Shown one piece after another: positions 37,703 to 56,722 of a stretch of 61,000 nt of DNA (positions are counted from its first letter, which is position 1; every line of letters begins with the position of its first letter). The stretch is taken from contig JBHLME010000007.1 of the NCBI GenBank assembly GCA_048938445.1, positions 1-61,000 of the forward strand, given 5' to 3'. Origin of the DNA: Promethearchaeota archaeon. Lineage in GTDB: Archaea > Asgardarchaeota > Lokiarchaeia > Sigyniarchaeales > SOKP01. The notes beneath the pieces were generated by a model. That model did not search any database and was not told the origin of the DNA. It saw only the letters and a list, made by a program, of their open reading frames with translations. Both the position numbers and the translations under genes were made by a program.

Positions 37703-38446
37703 TTAGATTACCCTCATTTGTTTAAAATCTTTATTAAAATCAGAATAATTATTAATTATGAGATGAGGAATATGAAAGGTTGAGTAATAAAAACTTGATC
37801 CCAAAAATCCATGAAGAAAATAAGAAGAAACAGTACTTCCATGAAATTTATTATATTGGAATTCAACTTTTTGATAAAAATTAGTATTTTTTATTTTTGT
37901 TTTTTTCCAAAATCTAAATAAAGTAGGGGCTTTTCCTTTTATTTTGGGAAATTGTCTAATGTAATTCTCAGTAGGATCATTATAGAGGTCACCTTTCTGC
38001 TCAACATTTGGTTTAAGCATGGTGGGTTGATATGTTATGGGAATGGATGATTCTTCTGATGTTTGAGAATCATCATTAGTATTAAGCTCACAAAAATCTA
38101 TATATAGGTATATTTGGAACTTCCTGCTAATAAACACGACTTTTATGTAATGATAAAAGGTCGTGTCAAGGAGAAACAAAAGATTTATTATAATAATAAG
38201 ATCTATCAAATGTCCAAGGGTAAATCCCCCTAGATTAGAAGATGATGGAATAGATGGAATTATCTCAATTCTCGGAAAATATGGAAAAAATAGAGAATTA
38301 CCAGATAAAATATAATCCTGAAAAAATATTGAAAAAACAGAAGTGTTTGTTAATTGTAAATATATGAATATAACTGGAAGCAATGAGAGAAATGAAATAA
38401 CTAAGAATAGTGCTATAAATTTAATGTTTTTTTTCTCTTTATGCAT
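37703..38446 (-). CDS. Hypothetical membrane protein upstream of the operon
   Basis: 247-aa ORF with two hydrophobic segments and atypical composition; no motif recognised. Confidence 0.45.
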   Translation of the reverse strand: MHKEKKNIKFIALFLVISFLSLLPVIFIYLQLTNTSVFSIFFQDYILSGNSLFFPYFPRIEIIPSIPSSSNLGGFTLGHLIDLIIIINLLFLLDTTFYHYIKVVFISRKFQIYLYIDFCELNTNDDSQTSEESSIPITYQPTMLKPNVEQKGDLYNDPTENYIRQFPKIKGKAPTLFRFWKKTKIKNTNFYQKVEFQYNKFHGSTVSSYFLHGFLGSSFYYSTFHIPHLIINNYSDFNKDFKQMRVI

Positions 38447-38753
38447 TTTTTGTCATTTATTCTGTGAGTATTCAAGATTTATTCTAATTTTGAATATAAT
38501 TACACTAGTTGCATTTTTTAAAAAGTTAATGTAAAAAAAAAAAAGTTTAGATTTTGAAAAATAATATTTATTTTGAGAATGCATTACACTTCAAAAACAA
38601 CAATTAAAAGTATTGTTCTTTATAAAATAAAAAATTTTAAATTTATTAGATTTTTTTGTAGTAATCCAAGATGAAAAAAGCATAAAGATTATAATAAGCC
38701 ACTTCTTTTGTATTTAAAGCAAGATTATTCAAACCAAAAGGAATGAACTAAAT

Positions 38754-40199: not shown

Positions 40200-40250
40200 T
40201 AATTCAGAACTTATATTTATCCTTTTTCACTTACATAGAATAATTTCATT

Positions 40251-41711
40251 TTAAGTAGTTAGGAACATGTTCGCAGTGCTCAATAATAAAATCAAATTAG
40301 CTACCTTAATTGATAACGAAGACAAACTTTTGGTATCATAATTAATTACATTATAATAATAAGAAGTTTTAGTGTGCTTGAAAGAATTTACAACCTCTGG
40401 AAATGAAGTATATTTTAATTTTATTCCAAATTTTTCGGGTGATTCATGAGCTGGAGAACCTGGAAAAATATAAAAGGGTTCGTTCATCATCGTTACTGGT
40501 GTAGAATGGGATGTCCCATATTTTAAACCACATTTTATCGCATATTGATAATCCTTAAGGACGTCAACACGTTTTTGGAATGGAAAACCAATGGTAAGCC
40601 AAATCCTCAAGATTCTATTATATAGGCTAGAATTTTTGATTAAATCATTTATTTGATTTTTAGGAAATTTAAATGTTGGGTCACATATTTTTCGTATTTT
40701 ATATTGAGCTCTTTCTGAAGTTGTTCTAGGAGAAATGCTAACAGATGAATATTTACGTCGAAATGTCTTAGAAAAAATCTCCCACATATCTCTAGGGAAA
40801 GGCAATCGCCAAATTTCTAGATCAGCGGCAATATCTATCTTTTCTTCCTTAATCAGGCTGAAAATTTGTTTCCAGTATTTAAATGTTCCAGGATACGTGC
40901 CATGACCAAAAAAAATACTCGGTATTTTGTAATTATCATTAATTTCTCTGATATCTTCAACCACTTTTTCTGGACTCCTAAGGATTACTTTATTTCGAGC
41001 CGAATTTCTTATTTGAGCTCTTTGTCCTCCACCACAATATGGACAATTAAATGGACATCCCCTTCCTATAGGAAGATTGAGAGAAATTCCCATGAGTCTT
41101 CTACTACATTCAAGATATTGTTGAGCATTATGAAGAAGTGATACATTCACGAAATTCAAATCATCCAAGTTCTTAGCAACATAACTGATTGGATTAACCT
41201 TTATATGATTAGAGGAATTTCTATAAGATAAATTAGGAACAGAATCAAAAGGTTGGTTTTTTTTAAAGTTTTGAATATAATTTAATAAGGGAATTTCACC
41301 TTCTCCCTTAATAACGCCATCAACATTCTTATAATATTTTAGAATTTGTTCATGATAATATGAAGCGCTAAAACCTCCAAGAATAACTCTTGCATTGGGA
41401 TTAACCTCTTTCACTATTTTAGCAACTTCAATAGCGCCATGTGCATTATGAATCCAATGTAAATCTATTCCACATGTATCAAAATCAATAGTTTTTAGAT
41501 AATCAGCTAAAGACCAATTATGATTTAAATAATCCTCTAAAGGATAATTCAGCATTTTTACTCCAAATCCCTCTCTTTCAATCAAATCTGCAATTGCGAA
41601 AACACCCATAGGAATAAAAATGTATGAGCCTCGTTTAAATCTATTATTTTTGCCTTTATAAGGATTGATCTCCCTTGGTGGATGAATAAAAATTATGTCG
41701 TAATGTTTCAC
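40251..41711 (-). CDS. Cobalamin-dependent radical SAM protein (Ta0216-like subfamily)
   Basis: FIHPP, PMG, GIDLHWIHNAHGA, GGFSAS, GEGEIPL, GRGCPFNCPYCGG, PGSP. Confidence 0.88.
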   Translation of the reverse strand: MKHYDIIFIHPPREINPYKGKNNRFKRGSYIFIPMGVFAIADLIEREGFGVKMLNYPLEDYLNHNWSLADYLKTIDFDTCGIDLHWIHNAHGAIEVAKIVKEVNPNARVILGGFSASYYHEQILKYYKNVDGVIKGEGEIPLLNYIQNFKKNQPFDSVPNLSYRNSSNHIKVNPISYVAKNLDDLNFVNVSLLHNAQQYLECSRRLMGISLNLPIGRGCPFNCPYCGGGQRAQIRNSARNKVILRSPEKVVEDIREINDNYKIPSIFFGHGTYPGTFKYWKQIFSLIKEEKIDIAADLEIWRLPFPRDMWEIFSKTFRRKYSSVSISPRTTSERAQYKIRKICDPTFKFPKNQINDLIKNSSLYNRILRIWLTIGFPFQKRVDVLKDYQYAIKCGLKYGTSHSTPVTMMNEPFYIFPGSPAHESPEKFGIKLKYTSFPEVVNSFKHTKTSYYYNVINYDTKSLSSLSIKVANLILLLSTANMFLTT

Positions 41712-41904
41712 CGTGGCTAACCAAATTTTTAATTATGAATAAATTTTTATATATCTGCAATTTAAGAACTATTAAATATCTATGTTTTAATTATTTTTAG
41801 ATATTATTTTAATTGGTTATGGGTTAATTATAAATTAATAAAAAATTTAAGTAAGTATTATGATTATATCTTTAGATAAATAAAAAATAAAGAGAAAAAT
41901 TCAA

Positions 41905-42423
41905 GTGAGTAATATGGATTATAAATCAATGTTTTCTTGTCCTCGTTGCGGTTTAGTTGGAGCCATTTTTTTACTAAAAGTAGGTAAAACGGATATAGTT
42001 ATAAAGCAAAGATGCCCACGACATGGTGGCAGAGCTTTTAGAGTACCTTTGATGCATAAGGACCAATATATTGATCTAGTTCGTGATGCAGTTTTTCGTT
42101 GTTATAAATGCGGTCAAGAAGCAATGGTAAGTTTTATGAAACCTTCTGGACCTTGGGCTATAATCAAATGTTCTTGTCCTGTACATGGAAGAATGCCTGT
42201 TCAAAAAATTTGGAATCCGATTTATGCTGAAATCTCTCAGCTTTCTACAAACCTAGCACAACAACAAGATCAACTACAACCTGTTCAACCACAGCCCGCT
42301 CAACCACAGCCCGCTCAACCACAATCAACTGAAAGTAATTCAAAAAAGTTTTGTGCGGATTGTGGCGGCCCAATTCAAGATTCTGAGAATTATTGTGGCA
42401 CTTGTGGGGCAAAAATAGAATAA
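41905..42423 (+). CDS. Multi-zinc-finger protein (two C3H-type units, Gln/Pro linker, double zinc ribbon)
   Basis: CPRCG...CPRHG; CYKCG...CPVHG; QPAQPQ repeats; FCADCG...YCGTCG. Confidence 0.85.
   Translation: MSNMDYKSMFSCPRCGLVGAIFLLKVGKTDIVIKQRCPRHGGRAFRVPLMHKDQYIDLVRDAVFRCYKCGQEAMVSFMKPSGPWAIIKCSCPVHGRMPVQKIWNPIYAEISQLSTNLAQQQDQLQPVQPQPAQPQPAQPQSTESNSKKFCADCGGPIQDSENYCGTCGAKIE
42271..42323 (+). repeat. 15-bp in-frame tandem repeat (QPQPA)
   Basis: caaccacagcccgct occurs exactly at 42286 and 42301, with a degenerate copy at 42271 and a partial copy at 42316. Confidence 0.85.
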
Positions 42424-42958
42424 TGATTTAAATATTTATTTTTTTATATTTATTTTTTTTTAAAGTCATCGATCTAATTTATTTCACTGAATCTTAATTG
42501 TTTTTTAAGTTAATAATGCTGCAATTGATAAATTTAATAAAAAAAAAAATGATTGGAAAATTAATACTTCTTTTCTATTTAATTATTCATTATCATGAGA
42601 TTATAATAACACGACTTAATGAAATGGTAATAAACCATCATTATTACAATATCTTTAATTATTTAAATATTAAATAGATATGACAAGTATACTGTCTTCG
42701 AGAAAATATAAATAATTTCACTTTTATCATTTAAACTTTGTAATTTATAAACAAACTATTGAGAAAAATTTAAATCATTGCTTAAAAAATAAAAATTGAG
42801 TTAATTATTGATGAAATGAAGTTTTACTCGAGTTTTATTTGAAACGCCATAATATTTAAAATTGTTTTCACTTTTTTATAAATACTATATCATTTATTTT
42901 TTAATTAGATTGTATAAAGATTATAATACATTTTTGTCATAGAATTATTTGAAGAAAT

Positions 42959-44419
42959 ATGAAAACAATACTAATCTATCCTAAACTTGATTTCGTTGGT
43001 ACTCAAGTCCCTACACCTCCTTATTCCATTTTATTTATTGCTGATTATTTGGTTAAACGAAATATTGACGTAGAAGTTTTCGATTTAAGGTATGATTCAT
43101 TAAATAAAGTGATGGATGGGATTTCAAACAATGAACCAGAATACATTGGTGTTTCTGTAATGACAGGACCACAGATATATCATGCATTGGATGCTTGTAG
43201 TACCATAAAGAAAGAATTTAAAGATATAAAAATCGTATGGGGGGGGCTCCATTCAACTATTCTTCCAAATCAAACACTTCAAAATAAGTTAATAGACTTA
43301 TTAATTAGGGGTGAGGGTGAAAGACCTTATTATAACCTAGTAAGTGGTAAACCTTTAAGTCAAATAAAAAATCTTTCTTTAAGAAAAAACGGACAAATCT
43401 TTCATAATCCTAATAATGATTTATTAAATAGTTCGGAATTAAATGAACTATCAATTCCCTGGGATTTAATAAATCCAAGTCTTTATATAAGAAATGGTAA
43501 TTTTACTATCATAACCAGTCGTGGTTGTCCCTATAAATGTAGTTTTTGTTATAATACTTTATTGAATAATTATTGGAGAGGATGGAAATCTGAAAAAGTC
43601 ATTGAAGAACTCGATAAAGCTTTAGATTATGGTGCTAAAAATATAACGTTTTTTGATGATAATTTTTTTGCTAATTCAAAACGAATAAAACCACTTTTTA
43701 AATATTTTAAAACTAGTGATATAAAATGGAAGGCAGAACTGCGAGTTGATCGGTTAAATCATTCATTAGCTGAAGAAGCTAAAAAACATGGTTGTAGTCA
43801 AATGTTTTTTGGTGTAGAATCTGGTTCTCAAAAAGTTTTAAAATTATTAAATAAAAATATTTCTCTAATTGATATATTAAGAAGCGCAAAAATAACGCGT
43901 GATGTTAATATTTTTGCAGATTATAGTTGGATGATCGGTATACCGGGAGAATCCATCAAGGATGTAAAAAAAACTCTATCTTTAGTTAAAAAGGTGAGGG
44001 AGATTAATCCTGATAGTGAATTTTCGATTAAAATTTTGTTTCCTTATCCCAAAACCGAGATTTATGATCGAGCAATAAAAATGGGATTTAAATCTCCAAA
44101 AAACCTCCTCGGTTGGGCGAAAATAAGAAGAGAGAAAGCACCAAACTATTTAAAACATCAAAATTTCTTAGAAATGATTTCAATTACTAGTGCTCTCGTC
44201 GGTAGGAAACTATTTGAACAAGAAAATGCTCCAATTTTCAAATTAATTAGACATCCGGCAAATTTTCGGTGGAATAAAGAAGTTTTCAGTGCTGGATTTG
44301 AGAACTTATTTTTTAAAATATTTAGAAGAATTTTTGAAAAAGTAATAAGTAAGGGAAGTTCAATTGAATATGATCCTTTTAAAAGAGAGCTTGTCTCTGT
44401 AGATAAGAATAATAAATAA
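42959..44419 (+). CDS. Cobalamin-dependent radical SAM protein
   Basis: GVSVMTGPQ, WGGLH, RGEGE, SRGCPYKCSFC, DDNFF, RVD, GVESGS, GIPGE, PYPKT. Confidence 0.92.
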   Translation: MKTILIYPKLDFVGTQVPTPPYSILFIADYLVKRNIDVEVFDLRYDSLNKVMDGISNNEPEYIGVSVMTGPQIYHALDACSTIKKEFKDIKIVWGGLHSTILPNQTLQNKLIDLLIRGEGERPYYNLVSGKPLSQIKNLSLRKNGQIFHNPNNDLLNSSELNELSIPWDLINPSLYIRNGNFTIITSRGCPYKCSFCYNTLLNNYWRGWKSEKVIEELDKALDYGAKNITFFDDNFFANSKRIKPLFKYFKTSDIKWKAELRVDRLNHSLAEEAKKHGCSQMFFGVESGSQKVLKLLNKNISLIDILRSAKITRDVNIFADYSWMIGIPGESIKDVKKTLSLVKKVREINPDSEFSIKILFPYPKTEIYDRAIKMGFKSPKNLLGWAKIRREKAPNYLKHQNFLEMISITSALVGRKLFEQENAPIFKLIRHPANFRWNKEVFSAGFENLFFKIFRRIFEKVISKGSSIEYDPFKRELVSVDKNNK

Positions 44420-44987: not shown

Positions 44988-45301
44988 TTTATATCACTTT
45001 TTTAATATAAGTAGATTTATTTTTTTTTTTCTTTTGTATTAAAGGATTTTATTAAATCACTTATAAGTTCAAGATCTATAAAAAAATTACTATTTTAATA
45101 CTAATAATATTATCATTTTTGTAAAATTAAGATTAATATCTTTAGTATGTTTGTTTATCCTAAATTTTAAAGTGAAAGGTATTATAATTTAAGGTTATAT
45201 GAAAAAATTTCATAAAATTTAAATTAAATTATTATTTTAATTACAAATTCATTATATCCTATTAAGATTAATAGTAATTTCATTTAATATTGGTTATTAA
45301 A

Positions 45302-46234
45302 ATGCCTGATATAATCTTTTCAATAGTATTTCCTTTAGTATTACTTGCTTTTCTTATTATTATATTCGTTAGTGGATTTTCAAAAACTGTTCCAGAACAA
45401 CAATTTATGAGCTTGGATGAATTTATCAAGGATTGGCTTAAGGATCACGGACAAGCTCATAAGTTGGATGAACAATTTGCAAAAATGAAAAAGGATCCGA
45501 GTGGCGCATTTTACATGCCTATAACATATAAAGGTGCTAAACTATTTATCAAATGGGGTTTGTCTGCTAATAAAGTATCGTTTATAAATCTAATAATGTC
45601 TTTTTTTATATTTTATGGAGTAATAATGGCTAGTGATGGGCATAATCTTGGATTATTATTTACAGTTCAACCATTATATGGATCATGGTTTATACTCCTT
45701 GCATTATTGGTTTTATTTACAGGAATAATCGACGGAATAGATGGAGCAATCGCCAGGTTATTGAATAAAAAGTCTAAAAGTGGTGCTTGGTTAGATAATG
45801 TTATTGATAGGGTAAGTGATATATTAATGTTAGTATGCTTAATTCCTTATGGTTTTTCAGGTCTACTTAATCTTGAGCTTAATTTTATTTTTATTTGCTT
45901 TGTCTGGACAAATATATTCATAATTTTTATTTACGAATATATGAGGGCAAGACATGAAGGCCTCGGTCTTCACGAAACAAAACCCTATCCTGGTGAAAGA
46001 ATAACCCGAGTTTTAGTTACGACTACATTTTTTCTTATTTACGGTATTTCAAGTTTCGTTGTTTTACTTACAATTTTGATTAATCCTTCTACTATTACAT
46101 TTTGGACAATTTCTCATTCATTTGTCGTCACTTGGATAATGTTAATTTTCCAAATCACGTTATTTGTCATTATGACGTCATCATCAATACTTCTTGGGAA
46201 ATATAGTTTCCAACAACTAAAAAAAATGGATTAA
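45302..46234 (+). CDS. CDP-alcohol phosphatidyltransferase family protein
   Basis: Signature DGIDGAIAR...S.SGAWLD..IDR.SD, plus AN.VS, Y.RAR.E and ER..R; multiple TM helices. ATG at 45302 (TTG at 45290). Confidence 0.93.
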   Translation: MPDIIFSIVFPLVLLAFLIIIFVSGFSKTVPEQQFMSLDEFIKDWLKDHGQAHKLDEQFAKMKKDPSGAFYMPITYKGAKLFIKWGLSANKVSFINLIMSFFIFYGVIMASDGHNLGLLFTVQPLYGSWFILLALLVLFTGIIDGIDGAIARLLNKKSKSGAWLDNVIDRVSDILMLVCLIPYGFSGLLNLELNFIFICFVWTNIFIIFIYEYMRARHEGLGLHETKPYPGERITRVLVTTTFFLIYGISSFVVLLTILINPSTITFWTISHSFVVTWIMLIFQITLFVIMTSSSILLGKYSFQQLKKMD

Positions 46235-46318: not shown

Positions 46319-47665
46319 TTGTGTTATGGATTAGTATTATTGTCGTATTTTGTTTTATTACATTTATTTTTTCCATCATCTTGGCCATCAAGTATAAAAA
46401 ATGGGATTGATGCTTTATTTACTAATCCATTAGGTAACTGGTTAGGTATCATTCCATTTATCGGATTAATGGTAGTATTAATGCTTGTGATATATTATGG
46501 TATACATTTCCTCGCATCTTTTGGTTCTGGTTTTAATAGTAAAACAAATACCTTTCCAGAAATTAGTATATTAATTGCTTCTAAAAATGAAAAAATTTTA
46601 TTAGAAAGTACCTTGAATTCTATAATTCAATCTAATTATCCAAAGGAAAAGATTCAAATAATAGTAGTATTAAGTGGTCCTCAAGATGATTCAATAGAGT
46701 ATTGTCAAGAATTTACAGACGCTCAAACCACAATAGATATTAAAATTTTATCTGACGTACTTCCTAAAAAAGGCAAACCTCCTGCTTTAAATCATGGTCT
46801 AAAATATGCAAAAAATGAAATAATAATTCTATATGATTCAGGCTGCATTTTGCAACCAGACACGTTAAAAAATTTAGTAGCACCATTTCAAAAAAAAGAA
46901 ATCCATGCAGTTATCGGACCTGTTTTAGTCAAGAATTGGAAAAAAAACAAAATAACTAAAGGAATATTTCTCGATTATGGTATTGTTTCTGGTGGTGGAT
47001 TATTATTTGAAATTAAAAACAGGTTAGGATCCTCTGCTTATTCATTTGGACGAAATCTAGCAGTTAGTAAAAAAACTCTACTAAAATATGGTGGTTTTAA
47101 TGAAGATTCACTTACAGAAGATCTTTATCTATCCGTGCTTCTGAATTTAGATGGCATCATAATTCGTTATGCTCCTAAAGCAAAAGTATATGAATATGTA
47201 CCAGAAACTTGGGAAATTTTAAAAAAACAACGTACACGCTGGCTTGCTGGATATACAGCGGATGCGCCACAATTAATGTCTATGAAAAGTGAAATAAAAG
47301 ACGGAAAATTTATAATTATTTCAAGGAACCTGACAATGATGCTAATAGGTAATATAGATACATGGATGCCCATAGTTATTGGACTTGTTATATTACATTT
47401 CCTTATTGGAGATTATTACATGCTACTTTGGAGTCTTTCCTGTTTATTCTTTCAATTTGGATATTTGTTCAATTCAATTAGAAAATATTGCGATAAACAC
47501 TATAGTCTCTTGTTTTATTTCTTAGTTAGTGGTTATATTCATCTTTTCATGTTTTTACACCAATTTAAACTCCCAAAAGAATTAAGTTGGGAAAAAACAC
47601 CAATGTTATTAGAAAAACAAGAAGCAGAAATAATTGCTTTATCAACAATTACAACAACAAAATAA
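46319..47665 (+). CDS. GT2 glycosyltransferase, membrane-bound cellulose-synthase-like type
   Basis: ISILIASKNE, YP, GKPPALN.G, GGFNEDSLTED, QRTRW; N- and C-terminal TM helices. Confidence 0.9.
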   Translation: MCYGLVLLSYFVLLHLFFPSSWPSSIKNGIDALFTNPLGNWLGIIPFIGLMVVLMLVIYYGIHFLASFGSGFNSKTNTFPEISILIASKNEKILLESTLNSIIQSNYPKEKIQIIVVLSGPQDDSIEYCQEFTDAQTTIDIKILSDVLPKKGKPPALNHGLKYAKNEIIILYDSGCILQPDTLKNLVAPFQKKEIHAVIGPVLVKNWKKNKITKGIFLDYGIVSGGGLLFEIKNRLGSSAYSFGRNLAVSKKTLLKYGGFNEDSLTEDLYLSVLLNLDGIIIRYAPKAKVYEYVPETWEILKKQRTRWLAGYTADAPQLMSMKSEIKDGKFIIISRNLTMMLIGNIDTWMPIVIGLVILHFLIGDYYMLLWSLSCLFFQFGYLFNSIRKYCDKHYSLLFYFLVSGYIHLFMFLHQFKLPKELSWEKTPMLLEKQEAEIIALSTITTTK

Positions 47666-47759: not shown

Positions 47760-48506
47760 TTATTTCTTTTTATCATATTTAGCGATTGCATTGATTGGAA
47801 ATTTAATATTCTTTTTCTTCATTATTAAAATGAGAAGACTAAATATAACAATAGCAACACTAATACTCAATATAAATTTAATAAAATCAATCCTTAAAAC
47901 ATTTATAAGAAATATAAACAATACGATAACTAAAACTGCGTTTAGAACCATTAAAATATGAATAAAATCACTTAAAAAGTTAGGTCTAATATAACGCCGC
48001 TTATTAATACCTTCAATTCCAAATTTTAAACCCATTATAATTAAGAAAGTAGCACTTACCAAAAATATTTCTGAGTATTGTGTAAAAAAGTTAGGAATGA
48101 TGTAATACATGGATGGGAATAGATTTTCTGAATATCTAATTTGACCATGAACAGATAAATGAAATAAAAATTGAGTAATTATCATCACATCCAATGTCAT
48201 AGCGCATATAGGTGTTGTTTTTTCTGGATTTGATTCAAGTATTCGAAGTATAAAAACAAAAGCATACAAAGAAAAAGATGCTAATGCCCAGTTTAAAAAC
48301 ATGAGAGTAATTGAAAATATTGTAAAAATAATCATTTCAATTGGAGGGATGGGATTAGTTTTTGGTATAAAGTTTGATAATACATTCAAAGGATCAAGAA
48401 AGTTCAATAACCATGAGAATCCATAAACTACAGTTAAAAATATCAATATGATAAAAAAAATAACTTGGAATCTAAAGACTATTCGATTTTTTGTTTTGCT
48501 ATTCAT
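47760..48506 (-). CDS. Hypothetical polytopic membrane protein (about 6 TM)
   Basis: 248-aa ORF dominated by hydrophobic helices. Confidence 0.7.
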   Translation of the reverse strand: MNSKTKNRIVFRFQVIFFIILIFLTVVYGFSWLLNFLDPLNVLSNFIPKTNPIPPIEMIIFTIFSITLMFLNWALASFSLYAFVFILRILESNPEKTTPICAMTLDVMIITQFLFHLSVHGQIRYSENLFPSMYYIIPNFFTQYSEIFLVSATFLIIMGLKFGIEGINKRRYIRPNFLSDFIHILMVLNAVLVIVLFIFLINVLRIDFIKFILSISVAIVIFSLLILIMKKKNIKFPINAIAKYDKKK

Positions 48507-48647: not shown

Positions 48648-49949
48648 ATGTTTTTAAAATTTCATGATCTCTTACCAGAAGATTTAAAAAGAAAATTTTT
48701 TGATTTTGAACCAAGAATTTATGATGATGATAAATTTTGTAAAGATTTGGCAGACCAAATTAATTTATCATATAAAAATTGCGAATACTATCAAAAAAAG
48801 CTCTGCAATAAATTCAATTATAAAATTACTGATGAACTTAGTATTGATGATATAGCAACCATTCCCTATATTCCAACAGAAATCTATAAAAAGTCAGGAA
48901 ATCGAACACTGCACCTATTAAAATCACCTCTTGATGATATTGCCCTCTTCTCGTGTTCATCTTCCACATCTGGAGATCCATCGATAGTCCCACGTACCTT
49001 AGAAGATTTTATACAGATTCAATATAATTCAATTAAAGTTTTTTCAGAGTTTTTTCGATGGAAAGAGTTTAAAGATGGTACAAAAAGAAGCCTTGTTTTT
49101 AATTTTTCTCCAGACCGTTTATTTATGACATTAATGGCTAAAAGAAGTTCTAAAGGATTTGAGTATGTAGATAAAGTAAGATATTTTACCGCTTGTATGA
49201 ATAAACCATGGGAATACTACGGTTATGAAGAATATCTAATTAAATTTAAATATTTAAGAACACTCTGGGCGATTATTTCCACTTTTTCGATAAAAGGAGG
49301 TTTTGTGTTAGATGTTAGCAAAATGTTAAAAATTATTGATAATGTGTTAAAAACGGGATATTGGAAAGATACAGAGGTAAGTAAGTTTTTATTCGGAGGA
49401 AGTCCACTTTTAATGAATAACATGCTCACAAAACGATTATTAAAGGAAAATATAACCTATGACCTAGATGGATTATCTGTTGTTGGATGTGGTGGAGGAG
49501 GTTGGGACGGAGTAAAAGGAGAAGCTAAGATGGATACCGTTGAAAAAGTTTCTTTTATCAGTAAATATGAAAAGGTATTTAATATCAAATCAAAGGATAT
49601 AGCGGATATTTATGCCTTTACAGAAGGACCAACACTATTTGGTGGACATTGGTCAGAAAAATATCAAGATTTTTTATTGCATTGTCCTGATACAACTCGT
49701 ATAATTGTAAGAGACCTAAATAAATTAGAACCAATAGAAACAGGTGGAGAAGGTCTTTTAGAAGTAATTACTCCTTATGGTGTTAATGGTTCAATTAATC
49801 AAGCAGTTTTAGTTGATGACATCGTTGAACTGATATCAAAAACTAAATGTCCAGAATGTGGGTATCAAGGTGCCACATTCCGGATCTTAGGACGTTTGAA
49901 AAATGCTCAAGGAAAAAGTTGTTCATCGTTGATTAATTGGATTTATTAA
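48648..49949 (+). CDS. LuxE-like acyl-protein synthetase
   Basis: IPYIP...YK, SSSTSGDPS loop, GGGGWDG, DIYAFTE, IIVRD...LEP..G.EGLLE, DD.V, F.ILGR and C-terminal SCS. Confidence 0.8.
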   Translation: MFLKFHDLLPEDLKRKFFDFEPRIYDDDKFCKDLADQINLSYKNCEYYQKKLCNKFNYKITDELSIDDIATIPYIPTEIYKKSGNRTLHLLKSPLDDIALFSCSSSTSGDPSIVPRTLEDFIQIQYNSIKVFSEFFRWKEFKDGTKRSLVFNFSPDRLFMTLMAKRSSKGFEYVDKVRYFTACMNKPWEYYGYEEYLIKFKYLRTLWAIISTFSIKGGFVLDVSKMLKIIDNVLKTGYWKDTEVSKFLFGGSPLLMNNMLTKRLLKENITYDLDGLSVVGCGGGGWDGVKGEAKMDTVEKVSFISKYEKVFNIKSKDIADIYAFTEGPTLFGGHWSEKYQDFLLHCPDTTRIIVRDLNKLEPIETGGEGLLEVITPYGVNGSINQAVLVDDIVELISKTKCPECGYQGATFRILGRLKNAQGKSCSSLINWIY

Positions 49950-50063
49950 AGATCCTTTTTTTATAGAAATTTTAATATTAAAATTAAGTACAAAGATTTT
50001 TCTATGATGAAATAAGTTAAAATTAAACACAGTAGTTATGGTCAATTTAGGAGTTACCTTTTA

Positions 50064-51509
50064 ATGAAAATATATCTTATCAATCCCGCACCTTTAATAT
50101 TGCTCGATGGACAAAAGGAAACATTATTTTCAGCTTCTGCACCTCCATTAGGATTAATGTATATTGCAGCAAATTTAAAAGATGCGAGTCATGATGTCAT
50201 AATATTAGATCAAGCAGCTTTAAATTATAGCAATAGTGAAATAATACAATCGATAAATAAAGGAGATCCTGATGTAGTAGGTTTTTCAACAATATGCTCC
50301 TCCTTTGAAAATGCGAAACTAATATCAAAAGAAGTAAAAAACTTAAATCCAAACCTGAAAGTCATTTTTGGGAATTATCTTGCTACGTTTTATGCAAGGA
50401 AAATATTAGAAAATTATGATTGGATAGATTTTTGTGTTAGAGGTGAAGGTGAAATTACTTTCAATGAACTCATAGAGGTACTCGATAAAAATAAAGATCT
50501 TGATACGATTGATGGAATTACATTCAGGTTTAATGGTAAAATTAAAGAAAATAAAGATCGTAAACATGTTAAAAATCTCGATAACTTAACGTTTCCTGAT
50601 AGAAACTTGGTACAAATAGCATATAAAAATCGAATTGGTGGAATAGATCTTTCCAAACGCAAATTTACAACAATGGTTTCTTCTAGAGGTTGCCCATTTT
50701 CATGCACTTTTTGTGCTTGTTCAGCATTTACTCAAGGTATATGGAGAACTCGCTCTATTGACAATATTATTGAAGAACTATGTATGTTAGCAGATCAAGG
50801 TTATCGAGAAATCCTATTTGTTGATGATAATTTCACATTAAATAAAAAGAGAATTTTTGAATTTTGTGATAAAGTGAAAAAAGAAAATTTGGATATGGTA
50901 TATATTTGTGATGGAAGAGTCAATAATAGTTCTATTAATTTACTGAGAAAGATGAAACAATCAAATTTCGAGATTTTAATGTTTGGAATAGAAAGCAGTT
51001 CTCAAAGAATTTTAGATTCTTACAATAAAAGAATTACTCCTCAGATGAGTCAGATTGCTATAAAAAATGCCCGAAAAGCAGGTTTTAATGTTATTGTAGG
51101 TTCATTCATGATTGGTGGACTTGATGAGACGTATGAAGAAGCAATTAATACTCTTAAGTTTATATCAAAATTAGATATTGATTTTCCTCACATAATTTTT
51201 ACTCGTGCATTACCTGGGACTCAACTCTTTAATTATTTAATTCAAAATAATTTTATAGATGAGGATAAATACTGGGAAAGTGGAATAGATCTTATAGATT
51301 TACCAAATGCGAAAATGAAACGTGAAGTGATCTATAAAATAATAAAAGATCAATTTCATGTACATTTCTTTAGACCAAACTATTTAATTAAAGCATTTTT
51401 ACGAACAATAATAAGCAAATATCGACAAGAAATTATATTAAGTCATTTAAGTGTTAAAGAATTTGACAAATTTATAAAATTGATAAACAACCCCCCAGAT
51501 TTATTTTAA
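50064..51509 (+). CDS. Cobalamin-dependent radical SAM protein
   Basis: PPLGLMYIAA, RGEGE, FPDR, SRGCPFSCTFC, VDDNF, GIES, LPGT. Confidence 0.92.
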   Translation: MKIYLINPAPLILLDGQKETLFSASAPPLGLMYIAANLKDASHDVIILDQAALNYSNSEIIQSINKGDPDVVGFSTICSSFENAKLISKEVKNLNPNLKVIFGNYLATFYARKILENYDWIDFCVRGEGEITFNELIEVLDKNKDLDTIDGITFRFNGKIKENKDRKHVKNLDNLTFPDRNLVQIAYKNRIGGIDLSKRKFTTMVSSRGCPFSCTFCACSAFTQGIWRTRSIDNIIEELCMLADQGYREILFVDDNFTLNKKRIFEFCDKVKKENLDMVYICDGRVNNSSINLLRKMKQSNFEILMFGIESSSQRILDSYNKRITPQMSQIAIKNARKAGFNVIVGSFMIGGLDETYEEAINTLKFISKLDIDFPHIIFTRALPGTQLFNYLIQNNFIDEDKYWESGIDLIDLPNAKMKREVIYKIIKDQFHVHFFRPNYLIKAFLRTIISKYRQEIILSHLSVKEFDKFIKLINNPPDLF

Positions 51510-51536
51510 ATATGAGCTATTAGAGGTAAACTTCAA

Positions 51537-53042
51537 ATGAAAATTGCACTTATCAATCCTAGTTTGGAAACAAATATCTATACTCCATGGGTTCCACTAG
51601 GAATTTTATATTTAGGAACGATGTTAAAAGAAAATGGATTTAATGTTCAATTATTAGATGCTGGAGCAAAAAATTATGATAAATTTAAAGTTTTAAATTG
51701 GTTAAAACAAATTAAACCTGATATTGTTGGAATTTCTGTCTTTACAGTGGGATTTCTACCTTCTATCAATCTCATAAAAATTATTAAAGAATGGAATCCT
51801 TCTATTAAAATAGTATTAGGGCATTATCATTCGAGTATAGAAGCAGAAAACATAATTCGAAAATATGGTGACCTTGTTGACTATTGTGTGAGAGGAGAGG
51901 GAGAATATACCTTTTTAAAATTATGTGAATTCTTAGATAAGAAACATGATAAATTACCAAAGGAAATAAATGGTCTTGCCTTTCAAGATTTAAATAAGAA
52001 GATCATATTAACTCCAGAAGCACCTCTAATCACGGATTTAGATGCTCTACCTTTTCCAGATAGAACGTTAATTGACTATGATTATAAATGGAATTTTTCA
52101 GGATTTGAATTTTCAAAATCTAAACTTACATCAATAATATCTTCTAGAGGTTGTCCTTTTAATTGTTCTTATTGTGCATGTACAAAATTTGCGAAAAGAC
52201 GATTTCGCCCTAGGAGTCCCGAGAATATAATTGAAGAAATGTTGTTAATAGAAGAACAAGGATATACACAACTTAATTTTGTTGATGATAATTTTACATT
52301 AAAACCTAAAAGAACCATAAAGATCTGTGAATTAATTAAAAAAGAAAAAATTGATATTAATTGGCATACAGACGGTCGAGTTGACCAAACATCTCAAATT
52401 ATGTTGAAATGGATGAGAAAAGCCGGATGTAAATCCATATGGTATGGATTTGAAAGTGCAAATCAGCGAATTCTTGATATTTTTAATAAAAGAACTAAGG
52501 TTTCTCAATTTAATGAAGCAATTCGCAAAGCACGTAAAGCGAATATTGATCTTATTGTTGGATTATTTATGCTCGGGGCTCCAACTGAAACATTAGATGA
52601 AGTAAAAAATACAATAAAATTCGCAGTAAACTCTGACATTGATGTCCCATTTTTCAATGTTGTAGAGATTTTCTCAGGGACAAAATTTTGGGAGGATTAT
52701 TGTTCCAAAGGTATAATTAATTCAAATGATATTGTAAAAGCTAATGTAGGTAATGAAACTTATGAAGTTGAACGGTGGGAAACTACTACAAGAGTGATAG
52801 ATTTCTTGCTAACTCAAGAGGAACGAGATAAAATGCTCAATGAAATTCAAAATGCTTACCAATTATTTTTCTCTTTTGAGAGAAAGAAAATTTTCCTTTT
52901 AAAGATGTTATTCCGCACTATAAGAAGTAAATTCATGATAAATATGGCGCGTAATATAATCAAAAATCATAAAGATGCAATTAATGCAATAACAACATTT
53001 AGGAATTCAAAACCAAAAGGTTTTGGGGTATATGATGAATGA
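51537..53042 (+). CDS. Cobalamin-dependent radical SAM protein
   Basis: PLGILYL, RGEGE, FPDR, SRGCPFNCSYC, VDDNF, RVD, GFES, G.PTET. GAGGT precedes the start. Confidence 0.92.
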   Translation: MKIALINPSLETNIYTPWVPLGILYLGTMLKENGFNVQLLDAGAKNYDKFKVLNWLKQIKPDIVGISVFTVGFLPSINLIKIIKEWNPSIKIVLGHYHSSIEAENIIRKYGDLVDYCVRGEGEYTFLKLCEFLDKKHDKLPKEINGLAFQDLNKKIILTPEAPLITDLDALPFPDRTLIDYDYKWNFSGFEFSKSKLTSIISSRGCPFNCSYCACTKFAKRRFRPRSPENIIEEMLLIEEQGYTQLNFVDDNFTLKPKRTIKICELIKKEKIDINWHTDGRVDQTSQIMLKWMRKAGCKSIWYGFESANQRILDIFNKRTKVSQFNEAIRKARKANIDLIVGLFMLGAPTETLDEVKNTIKFAVNSDIDVPFFNVVEIFSGTKFWEDYCSKGIINSNDIVKANVGNETYEVERWETTTRVIDFLLTQEERDKMLNEIQNAYQLFFSFERKKIFLLKMLFRTIRSKFMINMARNIIKNHKDAINAITTFRNSKPKGFGVYDE

Positions 53043-53129
53043 AAGCGGGATATATAGTGTCTCTTTAAAGTTTTTAAATAAAAAATTGATGATATAAATT
53101 TAAAATTTAATAATTAAAAGTGAAAATAT

Positions 53130-54569
53130 GTGAAAATCGCTTTAATTCTTCCAGTTCCAATGGATTTAAACAGAGAAGATCCTCGACCAATGTTTTCGAG
53201 TTTTGCTGAACCTTTAGGATTATTATATATCGCAGGCGTGTTGATAAATGATGGGTACGATGTTTCAATATTGGATCACGGTGCTACAAATTATACTTTT
53301 TCACAAGTGTTAAATTGGATTAAAAACCAGGATCCAGATGTTTTAGGCATTTCAGTCTTAACCCGATCTTTTCTCTCTGGAATTAAAATAGCACAATTAG
53401 CAAAAGAATGGAATCCAAACATCTCTATAATTTTAGGGAACTTTCAAACTGTATGTGCTGAAAGAATCTTAAAAAAATATGATTTTATTGATTTTTGTGT
53501 GAGAGGTGAGGGGGAACATACTTTAAGAGAATTATTACCATTAATTCAAAATAATAATACTAATTATGAAGATATAAAAGGGATATTTTATCGAAAAAAT
53601 GGAATAATTAAATCTACATCTCCTCGAGAATTAGAAAAAGATATTGATAAGTTTCCGATCCCTGATAGAAAAATGCTCAAAAATAACAAATATAAGATGT
53701 CAATGGGAGGAATAGATATCTCCAATGACAAATCTGGAACTATAATTATGAGTAGAGGATGTTCTTTTCAATGCAGATTTTGTTCAGTAAACCAAAGGAG
53801 TTGGCGTCATCGATCAGCACAAAATATAATCCAAGAGCTAGAAATTTTGGAGTCTGAAGGATATAGGGAAATAATGATAATGGATGATAATTTCACAATA
53901 AATCCTAAATGGGTAAAAGAGATATGCACGCATATTGTAAAAGAAAAAATCGATCTAAATTTTCACTGTGAAGCGAGAGTTGAGGGAACTAAAGAAATGT
54001 ATGATTACATGAATAGAGCTAATTTTAAAACGGTCTTCTATGGTATGGAAAGTGGAAGTCAACGAATATTAGATTATTACAATAAAAATATAACACTTTC
54101 TCAGTGTAAATTAGCCCTAAAAAAAGCAAGAAAAGCAGGAATTGACATGCTAATGTCATCTTTTATTATTGGCTCACCTATCGAGACAATAAATGATATT
54201 CAAACAACAATTAAATTTGCCCTGAATTTAGACATTGATTATGCTATGTTTCATGTTTTTGAGGTATTTCCGGGTATAAAAATCTGGGATGAATTAGTAG
54301 AACAAAATAAATTAGATGAAAATAAATATTGGGAAACTGGTGTGAGAGTCCCCGAACTTCCATTTTATAATATCGATTTGGATTTCTTAACAAATGTAAT
54401 TAAAAGAACCTATAGAAAATTTTACTCTTTATCAAGACCAAATTTTATATTAAAACAAATCTCGAGGACATTTAAGAGTAGCTATCGTCGTGATAAAATA
54501 TTGAATTTAGCTAAAGATTTTAGATCCGCATTTAGAATGCTAGATTCACTAAGCGAAAAAAGATTCTAA
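53130..54569 (+). CDS. Cobalamin-dependent radical SAM protein
   Basis: EPLGLLYIA, RGEGE, PDR, SRGCSFQCRFC, DDNF, GMESGS, GSPIET, FPG. Confidence 0.92.
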   Translation: MKIALILPVPMDLNREDPRPMFSSFAEPLGLLYIAGVLINDGYDVSILDHGATNYTFSQVLNWIKNQDPDVLGISVLTRSFLSGIKIAQLAKEWNPNISIILGNFQTVCAERILKKYDFIDFCVRGEGEHTLRELLPLIQNNNTNYEDIKGIFYRKNGIIKSTSPRELEKDIDKFPIPDRKMLKNNKYKMSMGGIDISNDKSGTIIMSRGCSFQCRFCSVNQRSWRHRSAQNIIQELEILESEGYREIMIMDDNFTINPKWVKEICTHIVKEKIDLNFHCEARVEGTKEMYDYMNRANFKTVFYGMESGSQRILDYYNKNITLSQCKLALKKARKAGIDMLMSSFIIGSPIETINDIQTTIKFALNLDIDYAMFHVFEVFPGIKIWDELVEQNKLDENKYWETGVRVPELPFYNIDLDFLTNVIKRTYRKFYSLSRPNFILKQISRTFKSSYRRDKILNLAKDFRSAFRMLDSLSEKRF

Positions 54570-54717
54570 TCGTTTTTCTTTAATTATTTGACATTTATAT
54601 TTAATTTTTCTCTCTAATTAATATTTTTATCTCAACAATGGCAAGAATCTTTATCAAATAATAAATAAAAAATAGATATTTTGTAATAAGATTAAAAAGT
54701 ATTAATCAAGGAAAATA

Positions 54718-55311
54718 CTACCAAAAATATGGGGAAAAAAGATTCAAATTTACAATTCCATATATGATTAAAGGTCCTATAATCGCAGATAGTCCTAAAG
54801 CTATGCAATTGAATATAATACTTAAAATACTAAAAACATTTCCTACTTTTTGAACAGTATTTTCTGTTTCAGATTTTCCTTTTGAAGCATTTACTTTTGC
54901 TATAATACTAAACGTTAATCCTAATCCATATAATATCAATGTGGGAATTAAACCTGTATACCTCATGCTCGAAGGGGTAAATAAAGGGAATCCAGACATG
55001 CCAAGATTGCTTAAGAATGATAAAAATAGTACTCCTGAACTGACTATAAGACCCGCTACTAACAATCCTAAGGATATAAGTGAAAAAATTAAACCTTTTT
55101 TAGAATATGGACCTATTGCTGAAGGTTTTGATTGATAGGATGGGATTGTTGAACCTGGTTGTGTTGTACTTGGTTGAGTAGTTGATATTTGGGGTGACCT
55201 CGATTGAGTTGCTTGATCATTCACCTGAGGAGTTGAAATTTGACTTCCACACATAGGGCAATAAATTACATCTGAACCAAGATCAGATGTACCACAATTT
55301 GGACAATACAT
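54718..55311 (-). CDS. Zinc-ribbon + 3TM membrane protein (divergent member of the downstream array family)
   Basis: YCPNCG...YCPMCG, S/T/Q/P linker, IGPYSKKGL.F and E..N.VQKVG echo the array motifs. Confidence 0.8.
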   Translation of the reverse strand: MYCPNCGTSDLGSDVIYCPMCGSQISTPQVNDQATQSRSPQISTTQPSTTQPGSTIPSYQSKPSAIGPYSKKGLIFSLISLGLLVAGLIVSSGVLFLSFLSNLGMSGFPLFTPSSMRYTGLIPTLILYGLGLTFSIIAKVNASKGKSETENTVQKVGNVFSILSIIFNCIALGLSAIIGPLIIYGIVNLNLFSPYFW

Positions 55312-55486
55312 AAATTTTCATCATTTTTTATAATTCTATATAACTCTAACTATTAAAAGAAAATACGATTATTTAAGAGTATTCCTTGATTAAAATTGAT
55401 TTGAATAATTATTAAATAATTGAATTTAATATTTTTATAAATTAAAAAAAAATAATGGGATTTAAAGATATTGATTTAATATTAGA

Positions 55487-56722
55487 TTATATCCAAGTTA
55501 CTAAAGAGGAGCATCCAAGTCCTTCTTTTTTTTCATATCTTCCTAAAACTCTAAACGTTGATCCTTCATACCCACATTCGGGACATTTATTTTTGGAGAT
55601 TAATTCAACGCGATCATCAACACCAACCGCATGTTTTACGGAAGCATTAGATCCGAAGGGTGTTAACACTTCTAAAAAGCCTCTATCTCCTTCTTTTGTT
55701 AATGGTTCTAAGGTATCAATATCTCTCACTAAAATTCGTGCATATGGTGGACAATGGAATACAAAATCTTCATGTTTATCTGACCAATGGCTTCCAAATA
55801 GAATAGGACATTCAGTAAAACTGTACATATCCACAACTCGATTTCTTTCAACTCCAAATAATTCAGAGATTTTTGAAACGAAATATGATTTGGGTATAGG
55901 ATTATATTTTAACTGTGCTTTATGTCCATCCCATCCGCCCCCACCGATTACTACATCAAATCTATCCCCCAAATTGTATTGAATATTATTATCTTCCATG
56001 TATTTCAAAAATTGGAGAATTAAAAGATTGCTCCCCCCCATTGCAGCATATTTTTTCTTTTCTTCCATGGCTTTAAGATTCTTATTTATATATTCTAAAA
56101 ACCGTGATTGTTTGATATAAAAACCTCCTACAATCTTTCCTGTTTTAATAATAGCTTTTAAAGCCTTTAGAATTGAAAAAGTAAATAAATAATCATTTTC
56201 GACCATTGATTCCGCTGCCGTGTAATAGTTTCCACTATAAGCAATTATGGGTCGTTGTTTAGTATATCTCATGCATAGTCTATTTAACATTTTTGGACTT
56301 GGAGAAAATAAGTGAACTCTAGCATTATCCCAATCTCTTGGAATAAAATCTAAAAAGGCTTTTCTTGACATTTCAAGTAAAAAATCCATGTCTTGTTGAT
56401 TAGTTCCAACTAAAGAAGGATCACCGTTGGTTGTAGACGAGCAATTCCAATGTAAGATTTGATCTTCTGGAATTTTTAGTAGTTTTTTATATAAATTCCC
56501 ACTTTCTTTATATGATACTGCTGGAATATAGGGTATTGTTTCTATATCTTTAATGGTATTAAGGTTATCGACTTGGTATCCTTGTTTATTAGCAAGTTCT
56601 CTATATACTGAATTTTTATCTATGGTGTCTGTTATAATTTCACGCATTAGATTAACGAATTCAATATCTTGATAGTTTTTGCTGAGAGCATCAACTATTT
56701 GATTTTGTGTAATTTCTAACAT
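55487..56722 (-). CDS. LuxE-like acyl-protein synthetase, paralog of 48648-49949
   Basis: IPYIP, CSSTTNGDPS, GGGGWDG, DMYSFTE, HWS, ILVRD, GFLEVLTP.G, KCPECGY.G.TFR.LGR, GCSSL. Confidence 0.8.
   Translation of the reverse strand: MLEITQNQIVDALSKNYQDIEFVNLMREIITDTIDKNSVYRELANKQGYQVDNLNTIKDIETIPYIPAVSYKESGNLYKKLLKIPEDQILHWNCSSTTNGDPSLVGTNQQDMDFLLEMSRKAFLDFIPRDWDNARVHLFSPSPKMLNRLCMRYTKQRPIIAYSGNYYTAAESMVENDYLFTFSILKALKAIIKTGKIVGGFYIKQSRFLEYINKNLKAMEEKKKYAAMGGSNLLILQFLKYMEDNNIQYNLGDRFDVVIGGGGWDGHKAQLKYNPIPKSYFVSKISELFGVERNRVVDMYSFTECPILFGSHWSDKHEDFVFHCPPYARILVRDIDTLEPLTKEGDRGFLEVLTPFGSNASVKHAVGVDDRVELISKNKCPECGYEGSTFRVLGRYEKKEGLGCSSLVTWI

Follow-up and report, generated by a model that had tools for sequence, protein, structure and literature searches.

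We analyzed a stretch of 61,000 nucleotides (the window) from a Promethearchaeota archaeon of the Lokiarchaeia (assembly GCA_048938445.1, contig JBHLME010000007.1, positions 1 to 61,000 of the forward strand). It encodes two homologues of the acyl-protein synthetase LuxE, here called LuxE_A and LuxE_B, on either side of three tandem genes for B12-binding radical S-adenosylmethionine (SAM) enzymes (B12_5, B12_6 and B12_7, together the trio). The reading that we favor, with moderate confidence, is that these genes belong to a modular Lokiarchaeial island for a glyco-phospholipid or other glycoconjugate, in which a CDP-alcohol phosphatidyltransferase (CDPOH) and a family 2 glycosyltransferase (GT2) form the core, LuxE_A serves for acylation without LuxC, the trio makes up an independent cassette of tailoring enzymes, and LuxE_B is part of another module. 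This reading is drawn from gene identities, conserved residues, a predicted fold, synteny and co-occurrence across genomes.

The stretch would be the right-hand part of such an island in Lokiarchaeia-type Asgard archaea. The CDPOH and the QxxRW-type GT2 would most likely build a sugar-bearing, phosphate-linked membrane lipid or a lipid-anchored glycan. LuxE_A would be a LuxE-type adenylate-forming enzyme that has lost its reductase partner, LuxC. We infer that it may activate a carboxylic acid with ATP, park the acid as a thioester on C425 of its flexible C-terminal tail, and deliver the acyl group to an acceptor that the core makes or that is associated with it, an acylation that would be independent of coenzyme A (CoA) and of acyl carrier protein (ACP). 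The trio would be a separate and optional cassette that acts on the core product and not on the LuxE-bound acid. The genes concerned are the following.

45290..46234, + strand: CDPOH, a CDP-alcohol phosphatidyltransferase resembling archaetidylinositol phosphate synthase (PF01066, 46.6 bits); first core gene
46319..47665, + strand: membrane GT2 glycosyltransferase of the QxxRW type (PF13641, PF13632, PF00535); second core gene
47760..48506, - strand: unk248, unknown multi-pass membrane protein between GT2 and LuxE_A
48648..49949, + strand: LuxE_A, LuxC-independent LuxE-type acyl-protein synthetase homologue of 433 aa (PF04443, 88.4 bits)
50064..51509, + strand: B12_5, B12-binding radical SAM enzyme, first gene of the trio (PF02310 and PF04055)
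51537..53042, + strand: B12_6, B12-binding radical SAM enzyme, second gene of the trio (PF02310 and PF04055)
53130..54569, + strand: B12_7, B12-binding radical SAM enzyme, third gene of the trio (PF02310 and PF04055)
54718..55311, - strand: ZnTM1, zinc ribbon, P/S/T/Q-rich linker and membrane hairpin (zinc-ribbon Pfam matches below cut-off)
55487..56722, - strand: LuxE_B, second LuxC-independent LuxE-type paralogue, of another subfamily, 411 aa (PF04443, 79.2 bits)

The open reading frames (ORFs) of the two LuxE-like genes and of the three radical SAM genes that they bracket lie exactly where an earlier reading of the sequence alone (the original prediction) had placed them. That reading lacked the ZnTM1 gene, which intervenes on the - strand between the third radical SAM gene and LuxE_B, and it lacked four further B12-binding and three SPASM radical SAM genes that the window also encodes. 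Every junction from LuxE_A to LuxE_B is bridged by short contigs of an independent study (176-714 nt, each spanning single junctions only; joints with a side shorter than 30 letters were disregarded). CDPOH (multi-pass), GT2, unk248 and the ZnTM proteins are predicted membrane proteins, and the LuxE-like and B12 enzymes are predicted to be soluble.

LuxE_A and LuxE_B as members of the LuxE family

The gathering score of the Pfam LuxE family (PF04443) is 24.9 bits, and LuxE_A and LuxE_B exceed it with 88.4 and 79.2 bits. With the NCBIfam LuxE equivalog model (NF052244), for which the cut-off is 550 bits, they reach 37.5 and 59.1. Judged by these profiles, both proteins are members of the LuxE family but are not equivalogs of the LuxE of luminous bacteria. 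They are 40% identical to each other (171/428, E 3e-93), and all of the motifs that they had been predicted to share, CSS(S/T)T.GDPS, GGGGWDG, D.Y.FTE, HWS, KCPECGY.G.TFR.LGR and a terminal (S/G)CSSL..WI, are present in their alignment.

The family profile matches the solved LuxE chain (PDB 7xc6_E, E 1.7e-24), and the alignment places C425 of LuxE_A on LuxE Cys364 and R416 on Arg355. In the LuxC-LuxE structure, Cys364 is the acylation site of LuxE and Arg355 a key active-site residue (PMC9157457). Both C425 and R416 are conserved, each in 69 of the 70 family members aligned.

A third residue differs. Lys238, which directly follows GGGW, is described as essential in LuxE (PMC9157457), and both window proteins have Asp at that position (D287 in LuxE_A). 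A Lys three residues further on (K290) alternates strictly with Lys at 287: K290 alone occurs in 55 members, K287 alone in 14, and both in none. Around bacterial, mostly clostridial, proteins with the Asp-type motif, LuxC lies within 600 nt of 58 of 76 LuxE-like ORFs, and its identity was confirmed by Pfam in all five loci examined. Because bacterial proteins with the same motif are LuxC-linked, the Asp-type motif is compatible with LuxE function, and this function has probably been retained. The possibility that the change from Lys238 to Asp marks a dead enzyme was considered and rejected, given the alternation with the Lys at +3 and the LuxC-linked bacterial proteins that carry the same variant.

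An AlphaFold2 (AF2) model of LuxE_A has a predicted local distance difference test score (pLDDT) of 88.4 and a predicted template modeling score (pTM) of 0.88. The tail at residues 421-433, which includes C425, is disordered in the model (pLDDT < 50). Residues 19-421 align to residues 5-337 of the 427 residues of PaaK1 with Z 27.4. Because the folded part aligns to this portion of PaaK1 only, the C-terminal subdomain of PaaK is missing from LuxE_A; LuxE itself is described as being without the mobile C-terminal subdomain of PaaK-type ligases (PMC9157457). Matches of the two proteins to the NCBIfam PaaK family reach 20.8 and 25.7 bits against a cut-off of 646.3 and cover only residues ~30-120. 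The original prediction had named ordinary, PaaK-like CoA ligases as one outcome that would overturn it. With the Cys364 and Arg355 equivalents kept, the cysteine in a disordered tail and the PaaK C-terminal subdomain absent, the proteins are instead of the LuxE type, and self-acylation on the tail cysteine without CoA or ACP is plausible from sequence and model.

The tails themselves separate the subfamilies. The Asgard LuxC-less subfamilies have a short, near-invariant CSS..W tail (CSS plus 5-6 residues), whereas the canonical Lys-type members end in tails of the CG(A/D) type. Upstream of the tail, LuxE_A has a CPEC hairpin at residues 401-404 (window ~49848-49859) that is also found in LuxE_B and is kept in 64-66 of the 70 family members, as CxxC or, in Lys238-type members, as CxC; the solved Photobacterium phosphoreum LuxE is without it. 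The hairpin may be a metal site, have a redox role or act as a relay to the tail cysteine. Whether C346, C401, C404 and C425 might form a metal site that would make C425 purely structural was also considered. The evidence argues against such a role because C425 lies in the disordered tail of the model and because LuxC-coupled relatives keep C401, C404 and C425.

The alternative that survives best is that the LuxE-like proteins are direct ligases, which would pass the acyl group from the acyl-AMP to a hydroxyl or amine of the acceptor, as do NatL2, ClxA and the GH3 amido synthetases, with no obligatory enzyme thioester. After PaaK and BT_0428, the best structural matches of the LuxE_A model are ClxA (Z 24.9), NatL2 (Z 23.8), AjiA1 and, lower, GH3 amido synthetases; of these, NatL2 and ClxA have been described as ligases that form esters or amides (PMC7204872, PMC12519233). 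However, only the first 309-337 residues of the solved chains align, and their C-terminal subdomain has no counterpart in the model. The near-universal tail cysteine and the near-invariant CSS..W tail shared by the Asgard subfamilies also speak against it, as does the LuxC coupling of the closest bacterial relatives, which implies a thioester relay. We consider direct ligation possible but unlikely.

The CDPOH-GT2 core and the companions of LuxE_A

The CDPOH scores 70.5 bits with the NCBIfam archaetidylinositol phosphate synthase model, for which the cut-off is 180. In the GT2, Q304-R305-x-R307-W308 is invariant in a nine-row alignment (A7), and the longest sequence matches in the PDB are to the cellulose synthase BcsA.

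We fetched 78 loci with relatives and labeled their ORFs by BLASTP against the window proteins; 47 of these loci hold LuxE_A orthologues (63-87% identity). CDPOH and GT2 genes lie co-oriented upstream of LuxE_A in 32 of the 38 loci with enough upstream sequence. Of the 134 other genomes of the family, 44 have a LuxE_A orthologue and 57 an orthologue of the GT2. The GT2 is present in 43 of the 44 genomes with LuxE_A and in all 13 genomes with the trio. No LuxE_A was found in the five other genomes of the genus.

ZnTM genes form a second class of companions. Next to ZnTM1 the window has further copies.

56954-57505, 57659-58228, 58381-58965, 59140-59541 and 59833-60372, all - strand: five more tandem ZnTM paralogues

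The genome from which the window comes has 12 ZnTM copies: seven in the window (54718-60959, - strand, the last truncated; the contig ends at base 61000), two beside a second island on contig C144, and three on contig C97. Their alignment (A6) shows an invariant N-terminal CxxC...CxxC, a variable P/S/T/Q-rich linker and a conserved membrane hairpin. A ZnTM member occurs in 26 of 47 LuxE_A loci as against 2 of 32 loci of other LuxE-like genes, and the ZnTM proteins are thus island-specific companions.

This distribution raises the possibility that the tandem ZnTM proteins are the substrates or acceptors of the island, acylated by the LuxE-like proteins, modified by the B12 or SPASM radical SAM enzymes in the manner of maturases of ribosomally synthesized and post-translationally modified peptides, or both. 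B12 and SPASM radical SAM enzymes are typical peptide maturases. The confinement of ZnTM genes to islands in their own genome (the three on C97 being next to four B12-binding radical SAM genes), their preference for LuxE_A loci, and the combination of a conserved N-terminal zinc ribbon with a variable linker would all fit. On the other hand, known precursor peptides do not resemble proteins of this size (170-200 aa) with membrane helices, most ZnTM genes are on the opposite strand, we identified no protein with a recognition domain, and the genes conserved with LuxE_A in an operon encode transferases of lipid head groups and sugars. We therefore regard protein modification as improbable and prefer the glycoconjugate reading.

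Trio and LuxE_A as probably independent modules

The original prediction proposed that LuxE_A, and with it LuxE_B, loads an acid onto its own C-terminal cysteine and presents it to the trio for successive radical modification. Several features would suit such a scheme. The acyl-accepting cysteine and the flexible tail are conserved, the genome has no ACP match, and some substrates of B12-binding radical SAM enzymes are thioester-tethered. The B12-binding enzymes ThnK, TokK and CysS methylate iteratively (review PMC9204698). The distribution of the genes across genomes was examined for a link between LuxE and the B12-binding radical SAM enzymes, as the original prediction had suggested.

Of the 44 loci whose downstream sequence is long enough, nine have the trio directly behind LuxE_A, among them the copy on C144 of the same genome; the other 35 testable LuxE_A loci are without it. 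The co-orientation of the first LuxE copy with three mutually similar radical SAM genes thus holds for the window, where the enzymes are 36-41% identical to one another, but it is not a conserved linkage. A search for B12_5 orthologues (identity at least 61%) in 400 genomes of the phylum found them in 13 other genomes, all among the 134 other genomes of the family. In these 13, the gene upstream of B12_5 is LuxE_A in eight, another radical SAM gene in one, and the GT2 directly in four that have no LuxE_A beside the trio (G153, G168, G171 and G173). G153, a 94% complete genome of the same genus, has the order B12_1-ABBA-unk383-U32b-U32a-CDPOH-GT2-B12_5-B12_6-B12_7 with all genes co-oriented and a gap of 46 nt between GT2 and B12_5, and no match to PF04443 was found anywhere in this genome. 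In G173 (98% complete) the sole LuxE is a 41%-identical paralogue on another contig.

Co-occurrence gives the same picture. Among genomes that have the GT2, the trio is no more frequent in those with LuxE_A: it occurs in 8 of 43 genomes with LuxE_A and in 5 of 14 without (Fisher p 0.27), or in 9 of 44 and 4 of 13 if G275, where a contig end truncates LuxE_A, is included. Members of the wider B12_5 family (E 1e-120 or better) are found, again given the GT2, in 27 of 43 genomes with LuxE_A and 8 of 14 without. In 77 fetched loci of this wider family, nine of them in Bathyarchaeota-type records, a LuxE-like gene is near only one, which lies on the same Asgard contig as locus L047. In the window, a run of seven T residues follows the LuxE_A stop codon, and the gap of 114 nt between LuxE_A and B12_5 compares with 27 and 87 nt within the trio. 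The trio and LuxE_A are probably independent modules, both dependent on the CDPOH-GT2 core, and there is no sign that the trio needs LuxE_A. Presentation of a tethered acid to the trio is accordingly quite improbable.

A number of observations weigh against the modular reading. In most genomes that have the trio (the eight of 13 mentioned above), it comes immediately after LuxE_A. In L046 and L048, LuxE_A and the trio form a unit apart from CDPOH-GT2, which is on another contig in G274 and G276. The trio-bearing LuxE_A proteins are clustered and basal on a quick tree, with 4 changes against a shuffled mean of 8.7; no shuffle out of 500 gave so few. In L054 (labeled Helarchaeota) and in L057 (labeled Bathyarchaeia), a more distant LuxE-like gene is likewise followed by a B12-binding radical SAM gene. 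A direct functional tie between LuxE_A and the trio may thus exist in some lineages. The absence of LuxE from G153 is an absence from a 94%-complete metagenome-assembled genome, and the genomes of one family are kin, so that the Fisher test is descriptive and overstates independence. On the side of the core, what the GT2 makes could be a free polysaccharide and not linked to a lipid, and the AF2 model of the GT2, built from the nine-row alignment, has a mean pLDDT of 53.7 and is unusable.

LuxC, LuxD and ACP in the genome

The genome of the window (4.6 Mb in 256 contigs, 96.5% complete, 8.2% contamination) has four LuxE-family genes: LuxE_A, LuxE_B, a copy on C144 that is 77% identical to LuxE_A, and a canonical full-length LuxE on contig C240 that scores 146.7 bits over the whole profile and has LuxC directly behind it. 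The C240 pair (L010 1482-4457) consists of a LuxE of 395 aa and a LuxC of 576 aa and adjoins genes for methylmalonyl-CoA mutase and MeaB. LuxE-LuxC pairs are also found in other Asgard records, e.g. L205, L213 and L215-L219.

The absence of LuxC from the window was noted originally. A genome-wide search confirms it and adds that the sole PF05893 match is the one on C240, beside its own canonical LuxE. No match to LuxD (PF02273) was found in the genome, and none to the PP-binding (ACP) domain. Neither LuxE_A nor LuxE_B has the adjacent LuxC that would mark a typical LuxE. Among 90 LuxE-like ORFs of loci L009-L088, LuxC lies within 600 nt of the C240 canonical LuxE only and of no Asgard ORF of the A, B or C type. 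Asgard genomes thus have canonical LuxE-LuxC pairs as well as LuxC-less subfamilies.

That the window proteins feed the C240 LuxC in an ordinary reduction of fatty acids to aldehydes, the radical SAM neighbors being incidental, is very improbable: although the genome has one LuxC and bacterial proteins with the Asp-type motif are LuxC-coupled, this LuxC already has a full-length LuxE of its own, the A/B/C-type ORFs have no LuxC nearby, their CSS tails differ from CG(A/D) tails, and LuxE_A is tied to CDPOH-GT2 instead.

Identity and possible chemistry of the trio

All three trio enzymes have the features of class B (cobalamin-dependent) radical SAM enzymes. They match PF02310 at 68.8-83.4 bits and PF04055 at 83.4-98.2 bits, above the cut-offs, and each has a CxxxCxxC motif at residues 206-211 (CPFSCTFC at residue 210 in B12_5). 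Their identity to the four further B12-binding radical SAM enzymes of the window is 25-33%, lower than that within the trio. The order B12_5, B12_6, B12_7 is kept wherever the fetched flank is long enough to show it.

The best NCBIfam match is HpnJ for B12_5 (187.5 bits against a cut-off of 577.6) and BchE for B12_6 (208.8 bits against 481); B12_7 scores 184.2 bits with BchE and 181.7 with HpnJ, both below the cut-offs. Over the three enzymes, the scores are 181-209 bits with BchE (TIGR02026, cut-off 481.35) and 173-188 bits with HpnJ (TIGR03471, cut-off 577.6), and none of them is an equivalog of either. The nearest solved sequence to B12_6 is AprD4 (6fd2, E 1.2e-21).

BchE and HpnJ are described as non-methylating class B enzymes. 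For HpnJ, a ring contraction of the glucosamine in a hopanoid glycoside made by the GT2 enzyme HpnI has been proposed, and a similar contraction has been proposed for the archaeal calditol synthase Cds (PMC9204698, PMC13459092). Because these nearest families are non-methylating, methylation by the trio should not be assumed. By analogy, ring rearrangement or oxidation (radical remodeling) of a lipid-linked sugar head group would be as likely as C-methylation.

A second family of tandem B12-binding radical SAM triples, 43-46% identical to B12_5, was also seen (contig C85 of G262, contig C18 of G261, and positions 10442-11857 of C97 in the window's own genome). In many genomes whose LuxE_A is without an adjacent trio, such a triple lies on the same contig as LuxE_A, ~9-29 kb away.

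LuxE_B

The bracketing of the trio by two LuxE genes, which the original prediction described, is not a conserved feature. Only the window and L050 have a LuxE_B orthologue on the far side of the trio; in L047 the gene beyond the trio is a 31%-identical LuxE paralogue of yet another subfamily. Elsewhere, the LuxE_B orthologues of L059 and L061 stand beside an unk248-type membrane protein with six transmembrane helices, an unknown protein of 384 aa, and a haloacid dehalogenase (HAD) phosphatase. Because the LuxE_B module is differently composed in these loci, the position of LuxE_B opposite LuxE_A is a local arrangement. A quick IQ-TREE tree places LuxE_B with L050 and L059-L063 in a separate starred clade; its deep nodes are unsafe owing to the long branches of L051_13422, L057 and L080. 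On the strength of sequence and neighborhood, we assign LuxE_B to another module and a different LuxE subfamily.

Flanking modules and wider setting

LuxE_A loci are flanked by two types of module. The first consists of U32, ABBA and radical SAM genes, and the second of genes for a sulfotransferase, a GT2, a radical SAM enzyme, an alpha/beta hydrolase, a hexapeptide acyltransferase and UDP-galactopyranose mutase. The U32/ABBA/radical SAM module adjoins CDPOH-GT2-LuxE_A in L012, L016, L018, L027, L030 and L043, is more partial in L014 and L032, and is also present in G153. The window carries this module in the left part of its island.

25377..44419: U32 proteins (two), unknown protein of 383 aa, ABBA prenyltransferase, SPASM radical SAM enzymes (three) and B12-binding radical SAM enzymes (four) (Pfam)

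The U32 genes, the gene for the 383-aa protein and that for a 536-aa ABBA aromatic prenyltransferase (PF11468, 176.8 bits) lie at 25377-31751 on the - strand, near the SPASM and B12 radical SAM genes. The combination of U32 and ABBA proteins recalls the oxygen-independent hydroxylation and prenylation of an aromatic compound.

For unk248, no Pfam or NCBIfam match was found, and a protein-atlas search gave no lead (feature scores at most 0.85, TM scores at most 0.41). Relatives with 33-41% identity adjoin LuxE_A or LuxE_B genes in L024, L047, L050, L059, L061 and L062.

Contig C144 (L009 1-20000) holds a near-complete second island with the order B12, SPASM, SPASM, unk245, B12, CDPOH, GT2, LuxE_A, B12 trio, ZnTM. 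Its proteins are 65-82% identical to those of the window for most genes, with lower values for unk247 and the ZnTM copies. This island is either an old duplication or the contribution of a second organism in a bin with 8% contamination.

Contig C97 (L295 1-20000) begins with a ZnTM fragment, followed by ORFs of 321, 343, 260, 366, 253, 249 and 387 aa and then by four ORFs of the size of B12-binding radical SAM genes. The sizes and order of these ORFs match the GT2-radical SAM-hydrolase module seen downstream of LuxE_A elsewhere. C97 probably continues the island of the window, the assembly having broken within the ZnTM repeats.

The G+C content of the window is low (0.26-0.35), and the transcription factor TFIIB is among its products. 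The named homologues of its proteins carry labels that are almost all Promethearchaeota or other Asgard groups. A BAR-domain protein is encoded at 24644-25288 on the + strand (PF03114, 43.1 bits), and a weak longin-domain match at 17274-17684 on the + strand (25.6 bits) falls just below the Pfam cut-off of 26.1. BAR-domain and longin proteins are eukaryote-signature proteins typical of Asgard archaea.

Implications

No known prokaryotes are more closely related to eukaryotes than the Asgard archaea, whose membrane and surface chemistry has hardly been explored. The enzymes of the island belong to superfamilies already known, and the novelty lies in the LuxE clade without LuxC and in the fixed position of this clade within an uncharacterized Asgard island. 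Much of one Lokiarchaeial family carries the island (GT2 in 57 and LuxE_A in 44 of 134 genomes), and none of the island's enzymes matches a characterized pathway. The LuxE-type cysteine has been kept and the reductase lost in a genome without an ACP match, which suggests an unusual attachment of acyl groups to a membrane glycoconjugate and bears on how far archaea use acyl chemistry. The trio and LuxE_A are best treated as independent modules and not as a carrier and its tailoring enzymes, and this guides the choice of genes to co-express.

A more specific version of this reading is tentative and rather doubtful. The LuxC-less Asgard LuxE proteins would be self-acylating carriers, independent of CoA and ACP, that pass fatty or other acyl groups straight to a membrane-anchored inositol-phosphate or amino-sugar lipid made by the CDPOH and GT2, or to the ZnTM membrane proteins, while the trio would carry out radical ring chemistry on the sugar head group of the kind proposed for HpnJ and calditol synthase. 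If true, the closest prokaryotic kin of eukaryotes would have an acylated glycosyl-phosphoinositide-type lipid, similar to glycosylphosphatidylinositol, or an S-acyl relay.

Comparison with known systems

None of the papers listed in our literature searches dealt with this combination of genes. The individual parts do have counterparts. The tandem or iterative B12-binding radical SAM methylases TokK, ThnK, CysS and PoyB share with the trio a class B architecture and the use of several enzymes or steps on one scaffold (PMC9204698). Sequence similarity to them is weak (TokK E 3.8e-08, CysS E 6.6e-06), and a carrier-tethered substrate is without support here.

The hopanoid pathway of HpnI (a GT2), HpnK and HpnJ, together with the calditol synthase Cds, resembles the island in having a membrane GT2 beside BchE/HpnJ-like B12-binding radical SAM enzymes that would act on a lipid-linked sugar (PMC13459092, PMC9204698). 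The match of the window GT2 to HpnI is weak (45.3 bits), and the radical SAM scores lie far below the equivalog cut-offs (481-578), so that the proteins are not orthologues. The island also differs in having three paralogous radical SAM enzymes in place of one and no HpnK-type deacetylase in the window, and its lipid would be archaeal.

The C-terminal subdomain of PaaK has a role in CoA use. The PaaK-family AMP ligases (PaaK1 2y27, BT_0428 4rvo, ClxA 9s3l and NatL2 6tm4) have the same N-terminal adenylation fold as LuxE_A, with Z 24-27 and a root-mean-square deviation of 3.1-3.5 over 300-316 residues. However, similarity in sequence is limited to the first ~120 residues, and the C-terminal subdomain with its catalytic Lys is missing in LuxE_A.

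The LuxE of the bacterial LuxC-LuxE reductase (PDB 7xc6, PMC9157457) shares with the window proteins the PF04443 domain, the P-loop Ser/Thr motif, the Arg355 and Cys364 equivalents and the flexible tail, and is likewise without the ANL/PaaK C-terminal subdomain. In contrast to it, the Asgard genes of the A, B and C types examined have no adjacent LuxC, and their products have Asp at the Lys238 position with a Lys at +3. Compared with P. phosphoreum LuxE, the window proteins are 40-60 residues longer, with an insertion at ~160-215 and the extra CPECGY hairpin, and their tails read CSS..W in place of KGCxLS.

The closest non-archaeal relatives found are the non-luminous clostridial LuxE-LuxC pairs (L166-L204; e.g. 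Clostridium cavendishii and Ruminiclostridium cellobioparum), whose LuxE proteins are 29-31% identical to LuxE_A. These proteins differ from LuxE_A in having LuxC directly behind them (58 of 76 ORFs), a length of ~380 aa and CG-type tails, but they belong to the same GGWDG-x-K-G class and have the CxxC hairpin.

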